Assembly (NCBI GenBank): GCA_003144275.1
Contig: NJBF01000076.1
Coordinates: 1 to 9,019, forward strand
Reading direction: 5' to 3'
DNA length: 9,019 nucleotides
DNA from: Candidatus Heimdallarchaeota archaeon B3_Heim
Lineage (GTDB): Archaea > Asgardarchaeota > Heimdallarchaeia > Hodarchaeales > Hodarchaeaceae
The notes below the pieces were generated by a model. The model was not told the DNA's origin, made no database searches, and worked only from the letters and a program-made list of their open reading frames with translations. How positions within the stretch are numbered: position 1 is the first letter of the stretch; every line of letters starts with the position of its first letter. The position numbers and the translations under genes are program-made. This document shows, piece by piece, positions 373-9,019 of this stretch.

Positions 373-1041
373 TCAAATTAAGCTTTGTATATCCTCAATC
401 GCTGCAGAGGTAATCCAGCTTACCTTTGTATACACTTTGCGAATCATAAGATTCTTATCAATCAACATACTTAGCCAGGAATGAATTAGAATACTTGGTT
501 CGGTTTCATTTTCATGTGACACTTTATAGGAAATGGTATTATTATTATCAGTAACATTAGCTAATTCTTCAAGTTCATTTGTATATGACAGGACCCCATA
601 GTCATCAACCACATGGCGTATGGTAGCTAAGTCATATGCTGTGAGAAATTGCCACCCTGTAAAGTTGACACCATAAGATAAGGCGTAGTTTTTTAATACT
701 GAGGGAGTGTCAAACAAAGGATCTAATGTAATACAAATAAGCATAACGTCCCTACCGAATGAAGAACCAAAAGCCGTCTGAATCTTTGTGAATTCATAAG
801 TCATCAAATCACAAAAATCATCGGTACAACTAGTATAAATAAATCCAAGCATTATGACCTTTCCTGAGAACTGTTGCAACGTAACTGTTTCATTATCCTG
901 ATTTATCAATGTAAAATCAGGAGCAGGTTTAATATTAGGAAGCATTTGATTCTGACTCAAGGGATAAAGCACGAATGCTGTGCCTACTCCTGCTAAAATC
1001 ATAATACTGATCGCCATTCCAACAATCGTGCTTTGTTCCAT
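373..1041 (-). CDS. sco: SCO1/SenC-family copper chaperone for CuA assembly
   Basis: Single N-terminal TM anchor, then APDFTLINQD and GKVIMLGFIYTSC-x4-C, ITLDPxxDTPxVLKxYA, WxFLT, and the conserved distal His in ILIHS. It lies directly downstream of the cox genes. Confidence 0.93.
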   Translation of the reverse strand: MEQSTIVGMAISIMILAGVGTAFVLYPLSQNQMLPNIKPAPDFTLINQDNETVTLQQFSGKVIMLGFIYTSCTDDFCDLMTYEFTKIQTAFGSSFGRDVMLICITLDPLFDTPSVLKNYALSYGVNFTGWQFLTAYDLATIRHVVDDYGVLSYTNELEELANVTDNNNTISYKVSHENETEPSILIHSWLSMLIDKNLMIRKVYTKVSWITSAAIEDIQSLI

Positions 1042-1072
1042 AGATAAGATCCTCGTTTACATTCTATACGTC

Positions 1073-1423
1073 TTAAATTCCACATAAATAGACAATTGTA
1101 CCCAAGGCTGGAATCATAACCACGGGTAAAGCGATGAACATGGGAATTCCAAACATTACTCCATATACAACCTTGGGGTTTTCTTGGTACTTAATACCCA
1201 TAAAGAAAGCAGCTACCAAATATACTTTCAATAAAGCCAGAGTAATAAGTGCTAAATTAATATATCCTTCCACATTTGCACCTTCTCCAGCTATTTCAGA
1301 GATAAATCCAATATTTAATTCTAAAATCGTTAATAATCCCAATGTAAGAAATACAATAAAATAAGGGCGTTTGACATACTCATGAGAATTTACAGTTTCT
1401 ATTTGTGTTGCCATTTTTACCAT
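1073..1423 (-). CDS. coxD: Prokaryotic cytochrome c oxidase subunit IV family protein (CtaF/CyoD-like)
   Basis: 116 aa with 3 TM helices. The pattern YxxVFxxLxxLTxLE...LAxxKxxLVxxxFMx(I/L)K matches COX4_pro. It starts 18 nt after the subunit I stop. Confidence 0.8.
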   Translation of the reverse strand: MVKMATQIETVNSHEYVKRPYFIVFLTLGLLTILELNIGFISEIAGEGANVEGYINLALITLALLKVYLVAAFFMGIKYQENPKVVYGVMFGIPMFIALPVVMIPALGTIVYLCGI

Positions 1424-1441
1424 CTCTTATAATTTCATTAT

Positions 1442-2977
1442 CTATACTGTGGGAAGTTCATCAATAGCCAGATTAAACGGATCATCACCTGCTGGTGGAC
1501 CCTTCCGGATGCTATAAATCATATTAATTACGAAAATGACTCCTGAAATAAACATTATATATGCCCCAACCGTTGCTAGGAAGTTCCAAAAAGCTAAGAC
1601 ATCAACGTTGCTAAAGGTTGAGTAATCAAAATACCTTCGAGGCATTCCATGCATCCCTGCGATCATCATAGAATTGAAGGTCGTCAAGAACCCAATAATC
1701 CACATGAAACAATGAACCCATGCAAGATTACGATGGTACATTTTGCCAGTCATTTCAGGGAAATAGTTATAGAAAGCACCAATAAGAGCAGTGAGAGCCC
1801 CACCTAAGATAATCATGTGAAAATGACCAACAACAAAAGCTGTATCATGTACAATGATATCGACTGGAACTATGTTCAACCATACTCCAGTAAGCCCCCC
1901 AATTACAAAACCAATAATAAAACCAAAAGGAAATACAATTGGTACCTCCAACTTGATCCTGCCTCCCCACATGGTCAGCAACCAGTTGAACGTTTTAATT
2001 CCAGAAGGAACAGCGATAAGCGAGGTTATTATGGAAAAAAGTGTTGTAGTAAATGCATCAGTTGCTGCACCATAGAGAGTATATTGGTGATGACCCCAAA
2101 CGAGAAATCCGAGGAAAGTAATGACCATCAATGATACTACCATCGATTTGTATCCAAATATCTCATTACGTGAGAACTTCTGTACCATCAGTGATGTTAA
2201 ACCCATGGCTGGTAGAATCATAATATATACAGCGGGATGGGAATAACTCCAGAATACGTGTTGCCATAGGAACGATCCCACACCAAAACCAACTGCTGAA
2301 AAGAAAGCGGTATCAAGAATGCGGTCAGATAGTAGAAGTGCTAATCCAGTTGTAATTAAAGGAGTTGCACATAATTGAATGATTGAAGTAGCCACAATGG
2401 ACCAACTAAATAAGTCAAGTTTTCCCCAGGTTAGCCCAGGTTTACGCATGGATGCTATGGTCATGATAAAATTGATAGCTGAAACTAAAGAAGATACTCC
2501 TGCGAGTAATACACCGATAATCCACATATCTACACCCACACCCCAAAGTTCTGCACTCAACGGTGTGTATAATGTCCAGCCTACAGATGATTGGGCAAAA
2601 AAGATTAGAAATCCAGCTGGTATCAATAACCAGAATGCCGCATTATTCCATCGCGGCCAGTACATATCAGGAGCTCCAATTAATTTCGGTATAAGATAAT
2701 TCCCAAAACCTGCTCCTAAGGGAAAAATCACCATGAAAATCATAATTGTTCCATGAGCAGTAAAAATAATTGAATATAATTCAGCATCGACTATTGTAGC
2801 ACCTGGAAATGCCAATTCTGTTCTCAGAATTAATGCTAAGATACCACCAATAAATACACTTATGATGGCTAAGACTATGTATAGAATTCCAATTTCGGCG
2901 TGATTTGTTGTTCCAATCAGGGTTCTCCAATTTTTATAGAAAGGGGGATGTGTTGTTTCTGTAATTTTTCTCACCAA
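1442..2977 (-). CDS. coxA: Heme-copper oxidase subunit I, A-family, A2 subtype (aa3-like cytochrome c oxidase)
   Basis: All six metal-ligand His are present: H75 (TAHG), H247 (YSHPAVY, with cross-link Tyr251), H296/H297 (WGHH) and H385/H387 (GHFH). D-channel D104/N111/N112, K-channel K328, HDT, GMPRRY and GWTLYTPL are also present. Start is TTG at 2977 or GTG at 2974. Confidence 0.98.
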   Translation of the reverse strand: MVRKITETTHPPFYKNWRTLIGTTNHAEIGILYIVLAIISVFIGGILALILRTELAFPGATIVDAELYSIIFTAHGTIMIFMVIFPLGAGFGNYLIPKLIGAPDMYWPRWNNAAFWLLIPAGFLIFFAQSSVGWTLYTPLSAELWGVGVDMWIIGVLLAGVSSLVSAINFIMTIASMRKPGLTWGKLDLFSWSIVATSIIQLCATPLITTGLALLLSDRILDTAFFSAVGFGVGSFLWQHVFWSYSHPAVYIMILPAMGLTSLMVQKFSRNEIFGYKSMVVSLMVITFLGFLVWGHHQYTLYGAATDAFTTTLFSIITSLIAVPSGIKTFNWLLTMWGGRIKLEVPIVFPFGFIIGFVIGGLTGVWLNIVPVDIIVHDTAFVVGHFHMIILGGALTALIGAFYNYFPEMTGKMYHRNLAWVHCFMWIIGFLTTFNSMMIAGMHGMPRRYFDYSTFSNVDVLAFWNFLATVGAYIMFISGVIFVINMIYSIRKGPPAGDDPFNLAIDELPTV

Positions 2978-2989
2978 ATCAATGTTTAA

Positions 2990-3652
2990 TTATTTTACGA
3001 CGATTTTTGCTTCCATAGAATAGTGCCCAAATCCACAATATTCAGCACAGTGTACCTCATATGTACCTGGAATAGGTACCTGTAAGTAAATAATATTATA
3101 TCTTCCTGGAACCATATCCAGCTTAATACTCAGTTCATGTGCGTAGAAAGAGTGAATGACATCAATAGATGTGATATTAAACATGTATATTTTGTTAACT
3201 TCTATATGAACGATATCTACACTACGAGAACCATTTTCTCTAACAAATGTGAAATTATATTGATACGCAATGACCAAAATTTCTTCATCATAGTCCTCTC
3301 GTTCACTGAAATACGAAGTAGTCGCAGGTAAACTGGCAACAAATAAGGATAATACGATGACTGTCGCAAATATGACCCATCCTATTTCTAAGCGCATTTC
3401 ATTTTGGATTTTTTTTCGAACAGTCTTATTTCCTTCCCTGAATCGAAATACAATATAAATTAGCATTCCAAATACGAGTGATGCAATAAATATCGAAACC
3501 AATATGACCAATGTTAATAGAAACTCAATTTGTGGGGTATATGTGGAATCTGTGGGAGAAGCTCTGGTGGAAATAACATGCTCAACCATGAATAACCCGA
3601 ATATCAAACTACCCAATGAGATTTTATATTTACGTTTCATATTAATTTTCAC
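2990..3652 (-). CDS. coxB: Cytochrome c oxidase subunit II with CuA site and no fused cytochrome c
   Basis: Signal-like N-terminus, two TM helices with the K-channel entry Glu (LEIGW), DVIHSF, and CuA motif CAEYCGFGHYSM (H167, C202, E204, C206, H210, M213). No CxxCH. The true start is probably ATG at 3640. Confidence 0.97.
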   Translation of the reverse strand: MKINMKRKYKISLGSLIFGLFMVEHVISTRASPTDSTYTPQIEFLLTLVILVSIFIASLVFGMLIYIVFRFREGNKTVRKKIQNEMRLEIGWVIFATVIVLSLFVASLPATTSYFSEREDYDEEILVIAYQYNFTFVRENGSRSVDIVHIEVNKIYMFNITSIDVIHSFYAHELSIKLDMVPGRYNIIYLQVPIPGTYEVHCAEYCGFGHYSMEAKIVVK

Positions 3653-3653
3653 C
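3649..3653 (-). promoter_or_regulatory. Shine-Dalgarno-like GGTGA for coxB
   Basis: The minus strand reads GGGTGA-aaattaat-ATG, so GGTGA sits 8 nt before ATG 3640. GGTGA is a common archaeal RBS core. It overlaps the GTG chosen as start by the ORF track. Confidence 0.55.
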
Positions 3654-3668
3654 CATTCTACTTCTCTT

Positions 3669-5120
3669 CTATATTAAATAAACCAGTGTAAACAGAACGA
3701 TCCACACTAAATCGACAAAGTGCCAATAGAGTCCAACTAACTCTAATCCCGCATGGTTTTCTTTTGTAAACCCACCTTGATGAGCTCTAAGTGTAGTAAA
3801 TATAACTAGAAGGACTCCAAAGAACACGTGCGCCCCATGAAGCCCTGTTTGCACATAAAAAGTTGACCCAAACAAATTGGTTGTGGGAGTAAAGTGGTGG
3901 CCAAATAACTCTAAATACTCTGATACTTGAATACTAAGGAAAAGGCTTCCTAATCCAGCAGTTGCTAAAAGATAATTACGGGATATTTTTTGGTTACCTT
4001 GTTTTATTGCATCCACTGATTTTACCATCGTGAAACTGCTGATAATTAAGATAAATGTATTTACTGCCGTTAAAGGAATATTCAAGATTTGGCTTTGATC
4101 TGGCCATTCAGCGCCAGAAGCAACACGAAGCCCGAAAGACGTCCCAATAATCATAGAAAACAAGATCACTTCACTACCTAGGAACAACCACACCCATCCT
4201 TCCTTCGGCCTTTTGAAGAGCTTTTGGGTGAATGTTTCGTTGAAAATAAATGCCAGCAGGAGAATGAAGAATGTCCAGAAAAACCCAAATGCTGCCAATA
4301 CATTATCATCGGTAAAATTTATGATTGCTGCGGCGACAAGTACTGTGCCAAGAGCTAAAGCTGCAGGCCAGAGAGTAACTTCATGTTCTTCATGTGACCC
4401 CTCTCCAGGTGGTTCTATATGTGGTGGCTTTTTGGAAAAACCAGCAAAAACTGTTAGAAATACTATGGCTAATGTTCCAACAAGAACTATTGGTGTTAAT
4501 GCCCCCTCCATTGTTCCACCTGGTAGCATTTCCCCCATTATTGGGATATCTGTGATCAAAGTTCCCCCATAAACGCGGAGTGCTCCCGCTCCTGACACTA
4601 ATGTTAAGAGAAGGTACCCTAAAATTTGACTAAGAATATACACGATCCAAAATAAATAGTGTTGACTGAAGAATCGTTCTTTTCTATAGCTGACGAAATA
4701 TATACGCAATGCTATAGCAAAAAGGAAGTAAGAGGTACCGATTATGGCCCAAATGACCTTATATCCTAAAATTGTACTGAGACTTGCTTCTGATATCCCT
4801 GCAGCTAAATTATCAAAATTAATATATCCAATACCGACATTTCCAGAAGCATCTAAAAATCCAGCTACTCCTGCGACAGCTAACGTCACAATTCCGTAGA
4901 TAAGGAACATAAATGCAACAAATTCAAATTTATCAGCGTAAGTTCGGCATGTACGTTGATCCATAAGTTCTCTTCCCCGAAAAACTTTTTTCACCTTTTT
5001 GCGATTGAAAAAGTCTGTTCTCTCAAATGCAGCAACTATAATTGCTACAAGGAATGTGAATACGCTCAATGCCAAATTAGCGATATGAAAATGTAAGACT
5101 ATTGGATGTAATTCAGCCAT
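3669..5120 (-). CDS. coxC: Cytochrome c oxidase subunit III (full 7-TM form) fused C-terminally to a ~230 aa 5-TM DUF2231-like domain
   Basis: The C-terminal half has TLWP (W251), FLGSEVILF, LNIPLTAVNTFILIISS, QVSEY, TGLHGAHV and YWHFVDLVW, all COX3 motifs. The N-terminal half has LHPIVLHFHIA, AGVAGFLDA and SGAGALRVYGG, resembling DUF2231 (HPxxVHFPI...GGxLVY). COX3 is certain; the DUF2231 assignment is moderate. Confidence 0.9.
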   Translation of the reverse strand: MAELHPIVLHFHIANLALSVFTFLVAIIVAAFERTDFFNRKKVKKVFRGRELMDQRTCRTYADKFEFVAFMFLIYGIVTLAVAGVAGFLDASGNVGIGYINFDNLAAGISEASLSTILGYKVIWAIIGTSYFLFAIALRIYFVSYRKERFFSQHYLFWIVYILSQILGYLLLTLVSGAGALRVYGGTLITDIPIMGEMLPGGTMEGALTPIVLVGTLAIVFLTVFAGFSKKPPHIEPPGEGSHEEHEVTLWPAALALGTVLVAAAIINFTDDNVLAAFGFFWTFFILLLAFIFNETFTQKLFKRPKEGWVWLFLGSEVILFSMIIGTSFGLRVASGAEWPDQSQILNIPLTAVNTFILIISSFTMVKSVDAIKQGNQKISRNYLLATAGLGSLFLSIQVSEYLELFGHHFTPTTNLFGSTFYVQTGLHGAHVFFGVLLVIFTTLRAHQGGFTKENHAGLELVGLYWHFVDLVWIVLFTLVYLI

Positions 5121-5908
5121 TATAGATCACCAGTTTTTAGATCATAATCAGTCTTCGGAGGGCGCCCTTTACTATCTACATAGATTAACAAACCAGTTAA
5201 GGTTACGAAAAAGGCCAAGGCTAATATAAACGCTTGACTGAAATCATATTTCAAGATACTAGCGCCTTTTAAATTCCAGAAAATCGTTCCTCGACTCACA
5301 CCTGCATGCTGATCCAAGAAATTGTCTGTGGTCCCATATGCCCAGATTATTGTAATTTCTCCCACTAATGGAATGGTATTATCATAATCAGTATCTGATG
5401 TAACAATATTCCGTTCAAATTCAATAATAGTTGTTTGGTCACTTTCGCTCCCATTAAAAGCGAGAATATTGTCTTGTCCACCTAATTCAGTATCGGGTGG
5501 ATGGGGACCGTAGTCCCCAATACTAAAAGCATCTATCATACTAACCGTACCATTAGAACTAATCCACCCAAAATACATATCAGCATCCTTCATTCTGACA
5601 GATGGATCTATACCAATTGCTACCCACCCAGTAGTTTGTACTTCCATTGCAATAAAGATTGTATTTTCATCTGTAGCTTGCCAATGAAGGATAAAATTGT
5701 CTTCATCAATACTTTGCTTATTTGAATACTCTCCATGATTGATAACGCCATCCAGCACACTCTCAGATAATTTATTTGGCGTTGCTTGTATAGAAACAAC
5801 TGTAGAAGTAATCATTAACATAAACACCAAAAAATGTAACATTTGTCTATAATTCGTATTTATTCGTAATTTGGTACCATGTAGCTTGTTCATTGCAGAA
5901 ATCTCCAT
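5120..5908 (-). CDS. Secreted, C-terminally membrane-anchored DOMON-domain protein, putative heme b (Met/His) binding
   Basis: Signal peptide ending ...VSIQA, then LHW, GWVAIG, M106-KDADMYFGW, EFER, IIWAYG and H201, then a C-terminal TM helix (AFILALAFFVTLTGLLIYV). Its TAA overlaps the coxC ATG by 1 nt (TAATG at 5122-5118). Confidence 0.88.
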   Translation of the reverse strand: MEISAMNKLHGTKLRINTNYRQMLHFLVFMLMITSTVVSIQATPNKLSESVLDGVINHGEYSNKQSIDEDNFILHWQATDENTIFIAMEVQTTGWVAIGIDPSVRMKDADMYFGWISSNGTVSMIDAFSIGDYGPHPPDTELGGQDNILAFNGSESDQTTIIEFERNIVTSDTDYDNTIPLVGEITIIWAYGTTDNFLDQHAGVSRGTIFWNLKGASILKYDFSQAFILALAFFVTLTGLLIYVDSKGRPPKTDYDLKTGDL

Positions 5909-5950
5909 CGGGGGTTATATTTTTGGTGCAGAGGACGAAAAAATCATCAT

Positions 5951-5963
5951 TTGTTATTAACAA
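5951..5963. promoter_or_regulatory. Perfect 6-1-6 palindrome TTGTTA-T-TAACAA, candidate operator upstream of the cox operon
   Basis: Seen directly, 43 nt upstream of the DOMON ATG. Related half-sites are TTGTGA (5968-5973) and TTGTTA (5987-5992). Function is inferred. Confidence 0.4.
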
Positions 5964-5999
5964 TCGTTTGTGAAATTCGAATAAGATTGTTACTTCTAT

Positions 6000-6016
6000 T
6001 TATTTAAGAGTTTCTT
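6000..6016 (-). promoter_or_regulatory. Candidate archaeal BRE/TATA promoter of the cox operon
   Basis: The minus strand reads AAGAAACTC-TTAAATAA, a purine-rich BRE-like run directly before a TATA-like box, about 90 nt upstream of ATG 5908. The intergenic region is AT-rich, so chance matches are possible. Confidence 0.35.
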
Positions 6017-6343
6017 ATGAATTTACACACAATTCCAGATTATCTCTATATAATTTGGACCAGACTCAAATCTACCTCTAACTCAGTTAATATCTCTAAT
6101 TATCTCACAGAGATTAATTACTTATGGAATTGTTTGTATTCTGCAATTTATGCTTATTTTCTATTAGCGTTTCATATTTCTTAGATTACGACAATGTAAA
6201 TGTCCCCAATTGACATCTTTTAAGGAACATTCATTTATTTCTCTATCTTCATAAAAGCTAGATTAATAATATATTATACTTAATACTATCTTAAACTTCA
6301 GTAGGATATTTCAAACTACAAGAAAGATAAGCTGGCTCTAAAA

Positions 6344-7501
6344 ATGAGTGAACAGAAGCATAGTAACCAATTCCATTCTAGTAACTATGCCATTTTCTTT
6401 CATGATCTTCAAGGAAAAATCCTTGATATTGACCAAAAGGGATTAGAGCTTTTTGGATACACAAAAGCAGAGATTTTTAATTTAAAAATTTCTGATCTAC
6501 ATCCTCCCGAATTTCTTGAAGAATCGAAACGAGCATTTGATACGATCACAAAAATGGGGTATGTAGATTTTGAGATTGACTTTCTGAAAAAGGGTGGTGA
6601 AGTATTTTCTGCAGAAGCCTCCTCAAGAATATTTGATATTAGCGGGGAAAAGGTTATTCAAGGTATTGTACGAGATATCACAGAACAAAAAAGAGTGAAA
6701 GAAACATTACGAGCATCAGAAGAAAAATATCGAACCCTTCTCGAAAATATAGAAGATAGTTATTATGAGGTAGATCTAGCTGGTAATTTTACCTTTTTCA
6801 ACAAAAATTTGCCCAAGATTTTGGGATACACTGAAAAAGAAATCATGGGAATGAATTATAGACAATACTGTAGTGAATCAGTCGCTATACAGGTATTAAA
6901 GGCATTCAATGACGTATACGTAACAGGAAAACCAGTAAAAGAGTTTGAACTGAAATTTATTAACAGAGATGGTGCAACAAGGTATTCAGAGGTGTCTATA
7001 TCTCTCATACTTGACTCTTCAAGAAAAAAAAATGGATTCAGAGGGATAATTCGTGAGACTTCTGAACGAAGAAGAGCTGAAATTGCATTACAGGAAGCTA
7101 AAGAAAAATATCAAATGCTCATTAATAAAATGGAGGAAGGGGTTGTATTAGAGGATTCCCAAGGTTTCTTCACCTTCACTAATCCCCAAGTAACGAGCCT
7201 ATTAGGATACGAAGAAGAAGAATTAATCGGTAGGCACTGGTCAGATTTTATTTCACCTGAATCTTTGGAAATGGTTAAAAGTGAGACGGCTAAACGAAAG
7301 GAAGGCTTCAGTAGTAGATATGAGACAGTAGCATTAGGAAAAAATGGCAAACGAATACCGATAATAGTAACTGCAACTCCTATTCATTCCAAGAAAGATG
7401 ATTTTGAAGGTGTCTTAGTAGTTTTCACTGATATCTCAAAACTGAAAAATGTCTCAAAGTTTCAAAAAAAAATCATCCAAAAACAGTTTGAAAGTTCCTG
7501 A
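6344..7501 (+). CDS. Triple PAS/PAC sensor protein, probably the truncated N-terminal part of a sensor kinase or similar
   Basis: Three PAS repeats (LFGYT..EI, ILGYTEKEIMG, LLGYEEEELIG), each ending in a PAC motif (IVRDITEQK, IIRETSERR, VFTDISKLK). The first two are joined by SEEKYRTLLE/AKEKYQMLIN linkers. There is no HisKA, GGDEF or REC domain, and the last ~17 residues are not linker-like. Confidence 0.9.
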   Translation: MSEQKHSNQFHSSNYAIFFHDLQGKILDIDQKGLELFGYTKAEIFNLKISDLHPPEFLEESKRAFDTITKMGYVDFEIDFLKKGGEVFSAEASSRIFDISGEKVIQGIVRDITEQKRVKETLRASEEKYRTLLENIEDSYYEVDLAGNFTFFNKNLPKILGYTEKEIMGMNYRQYCSESVAIQVLKAFNDVYVTGKPVKEFELKFINRDGATRYSEVSISLILDSSRKKNGFRGIIRETSERRRAEIALQEAKEKYQMLINKMEEGVVLEDSQGFFTFTNPQVTSLLGYEEEELIGRHWSDFISPESLEMVKSETAKRKEGFSSRYETVALGKNGKRIPIIVTATPIHSKKDDFEGVLVVFTDISKLKNVSKFQKKIIQKQFESS

Positions 7502-7664
7502 CTCTAAATTTGAAAACATATTAAAATTGGCCCAGAGGCTGCTAATCCATGGTTGAAATATTATTATCGTCTGGTTGGGCACAATAATATAGGTCTAAAA
7601 CACGGATAAGGAATAGGCCTATTGGAATAAATTGCCCGGTTAAGGACGATAGTATAAGCCTAAA

Positions 7665-7752
7665 ATGAGAATAAAGAATAGGTAATGAGGATAAAGAATA
7701 GGTTTATTATGAGAATAAAGAATAGGTAATGAGGATAAAGAATAGGTTTATT
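7665..7752. repeat. Perfect 44-bp tandem duplication built from four ATGAG(A/G)ATAAAGAATAGGT subunits
   Basis: ATGAGAATAAAGAATAGGTA-ATGAGGATAAAGAATAGGTTTATT occurs twice (7665-7708, 7709-7752). A degenerate copy, GGATAAGGAATAGG, lies at 7604-7617. Confidence 0.97.
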
Positions 7753-7882
7753 ATAATGAGGGTTATATCTGAATATGGTCAATAGGTCGTATTTGAAGTC
7801 TGTATGTCGGATAAATAATAGTCACGTGATAATGTGAATCCAGATGTTTCAAGATTAGTTGATGAAACGAAGTTTATAGTCG

Positions 7883-7904
7883 ATCAAATCCACCTGGATT
7901 TGAT
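7883..7904. repeat. 10-bp perfect inverted repeat ATCAAATCCA-CC-TGGATTTGAT
   Basis: Read directly from the sequence; the arms are exact reverse complements. Confidence 0.95.
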
Positions 7905-8138
7905 GAGATGGATTCATTGAAACCTTCACTGCACTGGGAGGATAATTTGATAAACCTCAGGCACCTAGTAGCACTAATGGTATTTTATAATCACCAAAGA
8001 GTTTTGGAGGAATAAATGTCCGACTTTTCTTATGTGTCGTTTCTAGATTATTGATCTTCTCTTCCCTCCTCCCGGCACACAGGATAAGCCAGGTATCAAA
8101 GGAGAAACTACTAAACAGGAGTTAGGGCGACCTCTAGT

Positions 8139-8157
8139 GTCGATGATTAGCATCGAC
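8139..8157. repeat. Hairpin GTCGATG-ATTAG-CATCGAC
   Basis: 7-bp perfect stem with a 5-nt loop, about 30 nt inside the putative LTR start. Confidence 0.9.
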
Positions 8158-8187
8158 GGGTAATTCTAATTGAATTGCGGCGCAATA

Positions 8188-8221
8188 TATGCCCCAAGTT
8201 TTTTAAAACGTGACCTCACGT
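8188..8221 (-). other. Candidate polypurine-tract region with upstream hairpin
   Basis: The minus strand reads ACGTGAGGTCACGT-TTTAAAAAACTTGGGGCAT(A), immediately before TATTGCG. The hairpin / A-T run / G-tract layout resembles Ty3/gypsy 3' ends, but the tract is short and interrupted by pyrimidines. Confidence 0.45.
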
Positions 8222-8399
8222 AAAAATAAAATATAAAATAGAATTATATAACTAGTAATAATAAATAAAAGGGTAACATGTACATATAAAAAAATATCAA
8301 TATATATATGTTTATAAGATTTGGAGAGAAAGAAGAAAGTTTAGAGAAAAATTCACACTTTACGTATAGAAATAGTATTTTTATAAACGGAATAATATT
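8222..8399 (-). other. Very AT-rich 3' non-coding region
   Basis: Hand count gives 31 G+C in 180 nt over 8221-8400 (~17%). It is T-rich on the minus strand and lies directly after the ORF stop. Confidence 0.75.
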
Positions 8400-9019
8400 T
8401 TATAATGTAGGGTTTAAAACGCGCGAATGAATAGTAATTTCTTTAGTTGAAGGATCTTGTAACACTGCGACTATGTCTCTGTCTTCTGGAAAAGTTACAT
8501 TCAAGGCACTAGCCGCATTCATAGCGTCAGTAGCTGATATATGTAAAGGGTCCCCAGCACGTAGCCGAAGGTATTTACAAGTTATTTCCTCGTCCGAAGA
8601 AGTTGATGATGACGGAGGTGTTGGAAGGCGTCGTTTAGGACGTCTAGTCGAAGGTTGTTTCTTAGAGGGTGGACGATTTGAGTTGATTATTGGTATGAGC
8701 GGCGATAATCGTTTTGGAGGCTTACGTTGTCGGGAAGAACGACGAAGGACTGTTGGTTCTTCAAGACCCGACAGTGATTCGGCTTTGGACGCCGAGTGAA
8801 CTTTCAACACTGGCGGAGGAGTATCCGCAAGTGTCAGGTTCGGAGGTGAATGAGAACCTTGTGAAGGGATAGATTCCACAACAGGGATGCCCGACAACTT
8901 TGGCAAGTTGATATCACGTGGCGCTGGAACAGGATCAGTAATCTGATGGTGATGTTGTATGGTTGGTTGATCCGGAGATAAATTCATCTTACATCCATCC
9001 GGGTGTAGTTCCACTGCAT
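8400..9019 (-). CDS. C-terminal part of a larger eukaryote-type ORF, probably a retrotransposon Pol/integrase tail (runs off the right edge)
   Basis: The frame stays open upstream of the GTG called as start (GCA-GTG-GAA), so it is 5'-partial. It is Pro/Ser/Arg-rich and looks disordered, contains LRRSSRQRKPPKRL, and ends in a ~60 aa folded-looking segment. GC is ~46% by hand count (275/600), higher than the cox genes. Confidence 0.6.
   Translation of the reverse strand, partial: AVELHPDGCKMNLSPDQPTIQHHHQITDPVPAPRDINLPKLSGIPVVESIPSQGSHSPPNLTLADTPPPVLKVHSASKAESLSGLEEPTVLRRSSRQRKPPKRLSPLIPIINSNRPPSKKQPSTRRPKRRLPTPPSSSTSSDEEITCKYLRLRAGDPLHISATDAMNAASALNVTFPEDRDIVAVLQDPSTKEITIHSRVLNPTL

Follow-up and report, generated by a model that had tools for sequence, protein, structure and literature searches.

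The 9,019-nucleotide window analysed here, which is the entire contig C92 of bin G000, is very probably an inter-genome chimera: sequence comparison with related genomes suggests that archaeal DNA was misjoined to unrelated DNA inside a coding sequence. Both homology to congeners and host-like composition are lost abruptly within the contig, and the interrupted gene continues elsewhere in the same assembly, on contig C72. The bin comprises 103 contigs and 3.95 Mb, and is 94% complete and 3.9% contaminated. Overlaps of 127 nt between contig ends point to a short-read de Bruijn assembly.

The archaeal part of the contig carries a cytochrome oxidase operon that includes SCO and DOMON genes (373-5908) and, further on, the start of a PAS gene at 6344 on the plus strand. 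Synteny of this DOMON-oxidase operon with G003 extends over 375-6040. In G013, the closest congener, homology begins at 5898 with the same divergent promoter region, which is then followed by a glutaminyl-tRNA synthetase gene; the operon itself was not found in this genome, which is 91% complete. The possibility that the oxidase operon is misplaced was considered and rejected, since the stretch syntenic with G003 overlaps the match to G013. A non-coding repeat of about 70 nt, REP- or MITE-like and dispersed, lies between the HAD and SCO genes (279-348), with at least 13 related copies in bin G000 and 20 in G013.

The join falls within the PAS gene. Positions 6344-7452 of the plus strand hold the 5' part of an archaeal PAS sensor-kinase-type gene, 369 codons with three PAS domains, and the coding sequence is interrupted there. 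Nucleotide identity to G013 is 93% over 5898-7452 and ends abruptly at 7452, while the orthologues in four congeners (G013, G007, G019 and G010) extend 246 to 252 codons beyond the break. Alignment to these four genomes places the junction at 7449-7453, a position uncertain by 3 nt because of the TGT at 7450-7452, and a homology-free composition change point at about 7396 agrees with it. The ORF called for the gene runs through 16 foreign codons past the junction to a stop at 7501. In G013 the full protein has 616 aa, of which residues 248-612 align to the sensor kinase AtoS, below the family cut-off. From these alignments, the gene in the window is cut at codon 369-370; the 385-aa 'PAS-only' protein from contig C92 is a truncated artefact whose last 16 residues are foreign. 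The original prediction had a retrotransposon end physically joined to a respiratory locus. A join is indeed there, but in the assembled contig only, and the archaeal partner is the truncated PAS gene, 1.5 kb from the oxidase operon. The 7-mer TCTCAAA occurs on both sides of the junction (7434-7440 and 7452-7458) and may, as a microhomology, have helped the join to form. The junction shows neither an attachment-site repeat nor a terminal repeat.

The other half of the gene, the missing 3' 217 codons, starts at base 13222 of contig C72 (13,223 nt), at the very end of that contig. This half has 82% protein identity to G013 and is followed by 5 kb of gene order conserved with that genome; the end of C72 that carries it holds no foreign or element DNA. 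In G013 the two halves are separated by 88 nt, and these 88 nt are absent from the G000 assembly. Both halves are free of stops, with dN/dS values of 0.22 and 0.23. The C72 half may come from a second strain in the bin, because it is more diverged from G013 than the window half is (dS of 0.43 versus 0.18). Most likely, on the evidence of the alignments, C72 is nonetheless the true continuation of the PAS gene of the window, presumably from the same strain. The split gene looks like the outcome of a hole in coverage at which one side was extended in error. We suggest that archaeal coverage dropped out inside the sensor-kinase gene and that unrelated DNA of the same sample was added to the open end at 7449-7452, either by the assembler or by way of a chimeric library fragment. 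The PAS gene in the cell would run through the approximately 88 unassembled bases into the end of C72.

By its composition and its absent homology, the block beyond the junction (7453-9019) is foreign DNA. Under a fifth-order Markov model of the host it has a z-score of -3.5, in the bottom 0.65% of windows, and five windows over the archaeal part of the contig have normal scores under the same model. For host codon use, the ORF of the block ranks in the lowest 2.5%. An animal-versus-host classifier, valid for the whole block only (its background consists of 1500-nt windows, and short-segment scores were discarded), places the block only in the top 5.6%. The CpG observed/expected ratio is 1.01, against 0.06-0.57 in the other animal-type pieces of the assembly, so the donor may be another organism than that of these pieces. 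The block is single-copy in the bin. Searches of 23 genomes from the order, of contig collections (metagenomes, viruses and genomes), of the ESM Atlas and of Rfam returned no match; phages and plasmids gave only three AT-rich matches of 40-136 nt. Its 205-aa ORF has no Pfam or NCBIfam match and no homologue among 1.84 billion representatives, where it is a singleton present on contig C92 alone. Sea-urchin mucin repeats were considered as homologues and rejected as low-complexity composition matches. A single-sequence structure model of the last 66 aa is poor (pLDDT 59), and the best fold match, at Z 3.7, is not informative.

What is this foreign DNA? It is most likely eukaryotic, and we lean towards reading it as the 3' end of an LTR retrotransposon, probably of Gypsy type, an assignment that is plausible if unproven. 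An ORF tail, a T-rich stretch, a hairpin and an A6-CTT-G4 tract had been described in this order on the minus strand, and all of them are present. The 3' end of the ORF occupies 8400-9017 and is open at its 5' side to the contig end; it is rich in proline (14.6%) and serine (12.2%). After its stop codon comes a T-rich non-coding stretch (8205-8399), with a short hairpin of ACGTG/CACGT core (8200-8226) and a polypurine-tract-like, although not purely purine, A6-CTT-G4 tract (8192-8204), all on the minus strand. The segment after the G-tract (7559-8187, minus strand) has no long ORF and is a candidate single LTR with putative ends. Between it and the junction lie 106 nt of A-run-rich, non-archaeal DNA (7453-7558), which are not homologous to the archaeal continuation and have no other copy in the bin; they may be donor chromosome that flanked the element. 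As a Gypsy-type 3' end, the block would comprise an integrase tail, a UTR, a polypurine tract, a 3' LTR and some 100 nt of its own flank.

A stop-free frame of 205 codons has a P-value of 0.002 in simulations, the hairpin (-10 kcal/mol, z-score -2.8) is equalled in stability by 2 of 200 shuffles, and tracts of the A6-CTT-G4 type are rare in bin G000, at 0.034 per kb. The promoter and polyadenylation signals ascribed to the LTR-like segment are likewise in place, with a TATAAA at 7989 and AATAAA at 7752 and 7708 of the minus strand, but they remain at chance level: a TATAWA followed by an AATAAA occurs in 18% of shuffles and in 13% of ordinary 629-nt windows of the bin, and both AATAAA hexamers fall inside a 44-nt exact tandem duplication (7665-7754), of which a decayed third copy lies at 7586-7629. 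The proposed LTR ends read TATT...AATA, with seven inverted pairs of at least 5 nt seen against nine expected. The TGG at 7549 has no tRNA-like complement after it, and 7453-7558 contains no tRNA-type primer site.

The ORF carries the basic motif RRSSRQRKPP at aa 92-101 (8744-8715). Basic tails of the form RRSxRxR(K/R)PP had been put forward as common at the C-termini of Ty3/gypsy and Ty1/copia integrases. We found no paper or database entry for this motif; the Gypsy tails compared here are similarly Pro/Ser-rich and end in arginine, but do not contain it. None of 3,269 host ORFs has a comparable motif, and a back-translated scan for it returned GC-rich chance matches, none of them near a retroelement domain.

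The block resembles a Ty3/Gypsy 3' end in its Pro/Ser-rich ORF tail with a basic motif, its UTR, its G-run and its non-coding portion of LTR size. It differs in having no integrase core, SH3 domain or chromodomain in its 205 aa, in the roughly 100 residues that follow the basic motif (with a C-terminal segment of 65 aa), in lacking TG...CA ends and in occurring as one copy. The contig ends at 9019, and no RT, RNase H or integrase domain was found in the residues present. A second copy of 7559-8187 was searched for in bin G000 and not found, nor does any other contig of the bin continue the ORF beyond 9019; the upstream part of the element would lie outside the assembly. Neither the contig nor the bin yielded a significant terminal repeat or a target-site duplication for the block.

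Given a chimera, the block could also stem from an ordinary eukaryotic gene, as its final exon and 3' region, or belong to another class of repeat. This is a serious possibility, if one we tend to doubt: the missing pol domain, second LTR and terminal repeat agree with it, as do promoter and polyadenylation motifs at chance level and the failure to find a homologue among so many representatives although Gypsy proteins are well covered there. On the other hand, a Gypsy 3' end fits the succession of long ORF tail, T-rich UTR, A-run and G-run, and 630-nt non-coding block with a tandem repeat. In control elements, too, a G-run stands just before the LTR, and their integrase tails are Pro/Ser-rich, bear Arg motifs and end in arginine. 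High-copy elements are, moreover, the kind of eukaryotic DNA that assembles in metagenomes, as contigs C13 and C40 in bin G000 illustrate.

Could the block instead be part of the archaeal chromosome? A prokaryotic mobile element or virus fragment, made of an orphan gene and a repeat-rich non-coding region and truly integrated, would accord with the lack of any eukaryotic homologue found and with CpG that is not depleted, and ORF-free runs of more than 1 kb do occur in bin G000. We nevertheless consider it very unlikely, in view of the absence of matches in viral contigs and prokaryote genomes, and in phages and plasmids beyond the short AT-rich ones, of the Pro/Ser-rich, disordered ORF with a basic motif foreign to the host ORFs, and of a junction devoid of attachment-site or terminal repeats; the 88-nt hole would also be left unexplained. 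An LTR retrotransposon truly present in the chromosome would have to be a recent insertion into the PAS kinase gene, with a 3' LTR ending in CA at 7450 and an assembly that broke twice, once within the element and once shortly before its other end. On the minus strand, positions 7453-7450 do read GACA, which falls inside the 3-nt range of the junction; if the insertion were very recent, dN/dS would not have shifted, and C72 stops short of the site, so that its far side is not seen. However, a junction commonly has a TG within a few bases of it, and an end at 7450 has no inverted-repeat match, beyond TG, to starts on the G-tract side. An integrase links the LTR end to host DNA with nothing in between, and its reaction leaves a target duplication of 4-6 nt, from which 88 missing bases are not expected. 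The original prediction set the left boundary of the element at 7559, whereas congener alignments show that non-archaeal DNA begins at 7450-7453, about 106 nt outside that proposed LTR end; with the 7559 boundary, the join was not made by integration, because these 106 nt of non-archaeal DNA intervene.

The wider survey argues in the same direction. Among 301 Asgard genomes, three have Gypsy integrase zinc domains, in every case on stand-alone contigs of 4-7 kb with only retroelement ORFs, and a second mid-gene join with animal-type DNA exists in the same assembly, on contig C93. We thus regard a resident retrotransposon as extremely improbable, and residence in an Asgard host, as entertained in the original prediction, is not supported. 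Its prior in favour of contamination or misassembly is, by contrast, well supported by the mid-gene break, the gene half on C72, contigs C13 and C40, and the join on C93.

Contigs C13 and C40 are stand-alone Gypsy elements of the Gmr1 type, in which the integrase precedes the RT (PMC8220671); here it precedes RT and RNase H, and neither contig carries a prokaryotic gene. C13 includes a SCAN domain, and its pol is 88% identical to more than 100 copies on long (megabase) gene-poor contigs; two contigs with such copies belong to one ENA assembly, ERZ25072999. Both C13 and C40 are mis-binned into the archaeal genome and, coming from the same sample and bin as the window, are evidence of assembled animal retroelement DNA. 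Neither was retained as the upstream part of the element in the block: the domain order differs, with a pol that ends in RNase H, the LTR ends are TGTTA...TAACA, and no sequence is shared. A reverse transcriptase on C2 was also rejected as a relative of the block. This 417-aa stand-alone RT sits among prokaryotic genes, beside a resolvase and a restriction-type helicase.

In contig C93, homology to two congeners ends at 1062, mid-frame, inside a gene for an M48 (HtpX-like) peptidase that has 65 more residues in G013 than at the break. The portion on the other side of the break, C93:1-1061, is CpG-depleted, with an observed/expected ratio near 0.1. Since the archaeal neighbourhood of C93 resumes about 300 nt on, at C35:16264, contig C35 may also be a chimera. 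Animal DNA was thus present in the sample, and joins of this kind arose in the assembly in at least two cases (C92 and C93). Elsewhere in the bin, C90:1-1387 is ORF-free and CpG-depleted (0.22) and is joined to bacterial-type toxin-antitoxin-like genes. The small contigs C2, C77, C81 and C98 have bacterial-type genes or abrupt GC steps and are likely to be further mis-binned or chimeric material. Two more Asgard bins contain stand-alone Gypsy and BEL/Pao retrotransposon contigs of 4.4-6.4 kb with only retroelement ORFs (G135:C306, C188 and C137; G188:C513 and C519).

Chimeric contigs arising from misassembly, along with non-redundant contamination, are defined for metagenome-assembled genomes in the GUNC study, which describes misassembly as rare relative to mis-binning (PMC8201837). 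Contig C92 resembles that type of chimerism in that two sources meet in one contig, invisibly to marker-gene scores, in a bin that also holds mis-binned foreign contigs. It differs from the GUNC cases in its donor, probably a eukaryote, of which only a single orphan ORF would be visible to a gene-lineage tool, and bin G000 departs from the GUNC expectation with at least two cases of misassembly. LTR/Gypsy-like repeats in archaeal assemblies also recall the 'eukaryotic-like transposons' described in archaea, repeats labelled LTR/Gypsy by similarity that often overlap IS3/IS481 elements; the accessible part of that report describes neither a complete LTR retrotransposon residing in an archaeon nor any enrichment among Asgard genomes (PMC13343696).

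A resident insertion, if true, would represent the first case of an LTR retrotransposon in a prokaryote. The join is instead very likely an artefact, and is to be taken as a warning on data quality rather than as archaeal biology. Bin G000 passes marker-gene filters, yet it holds entire contigs of animal-type retrotransposons, and some of its archaeal genes are fused to foreign DNA. Where eukaryote-like genes are claimed for Asgard genomes, their position at contig ends, synteny in congeners and read support should be checked.
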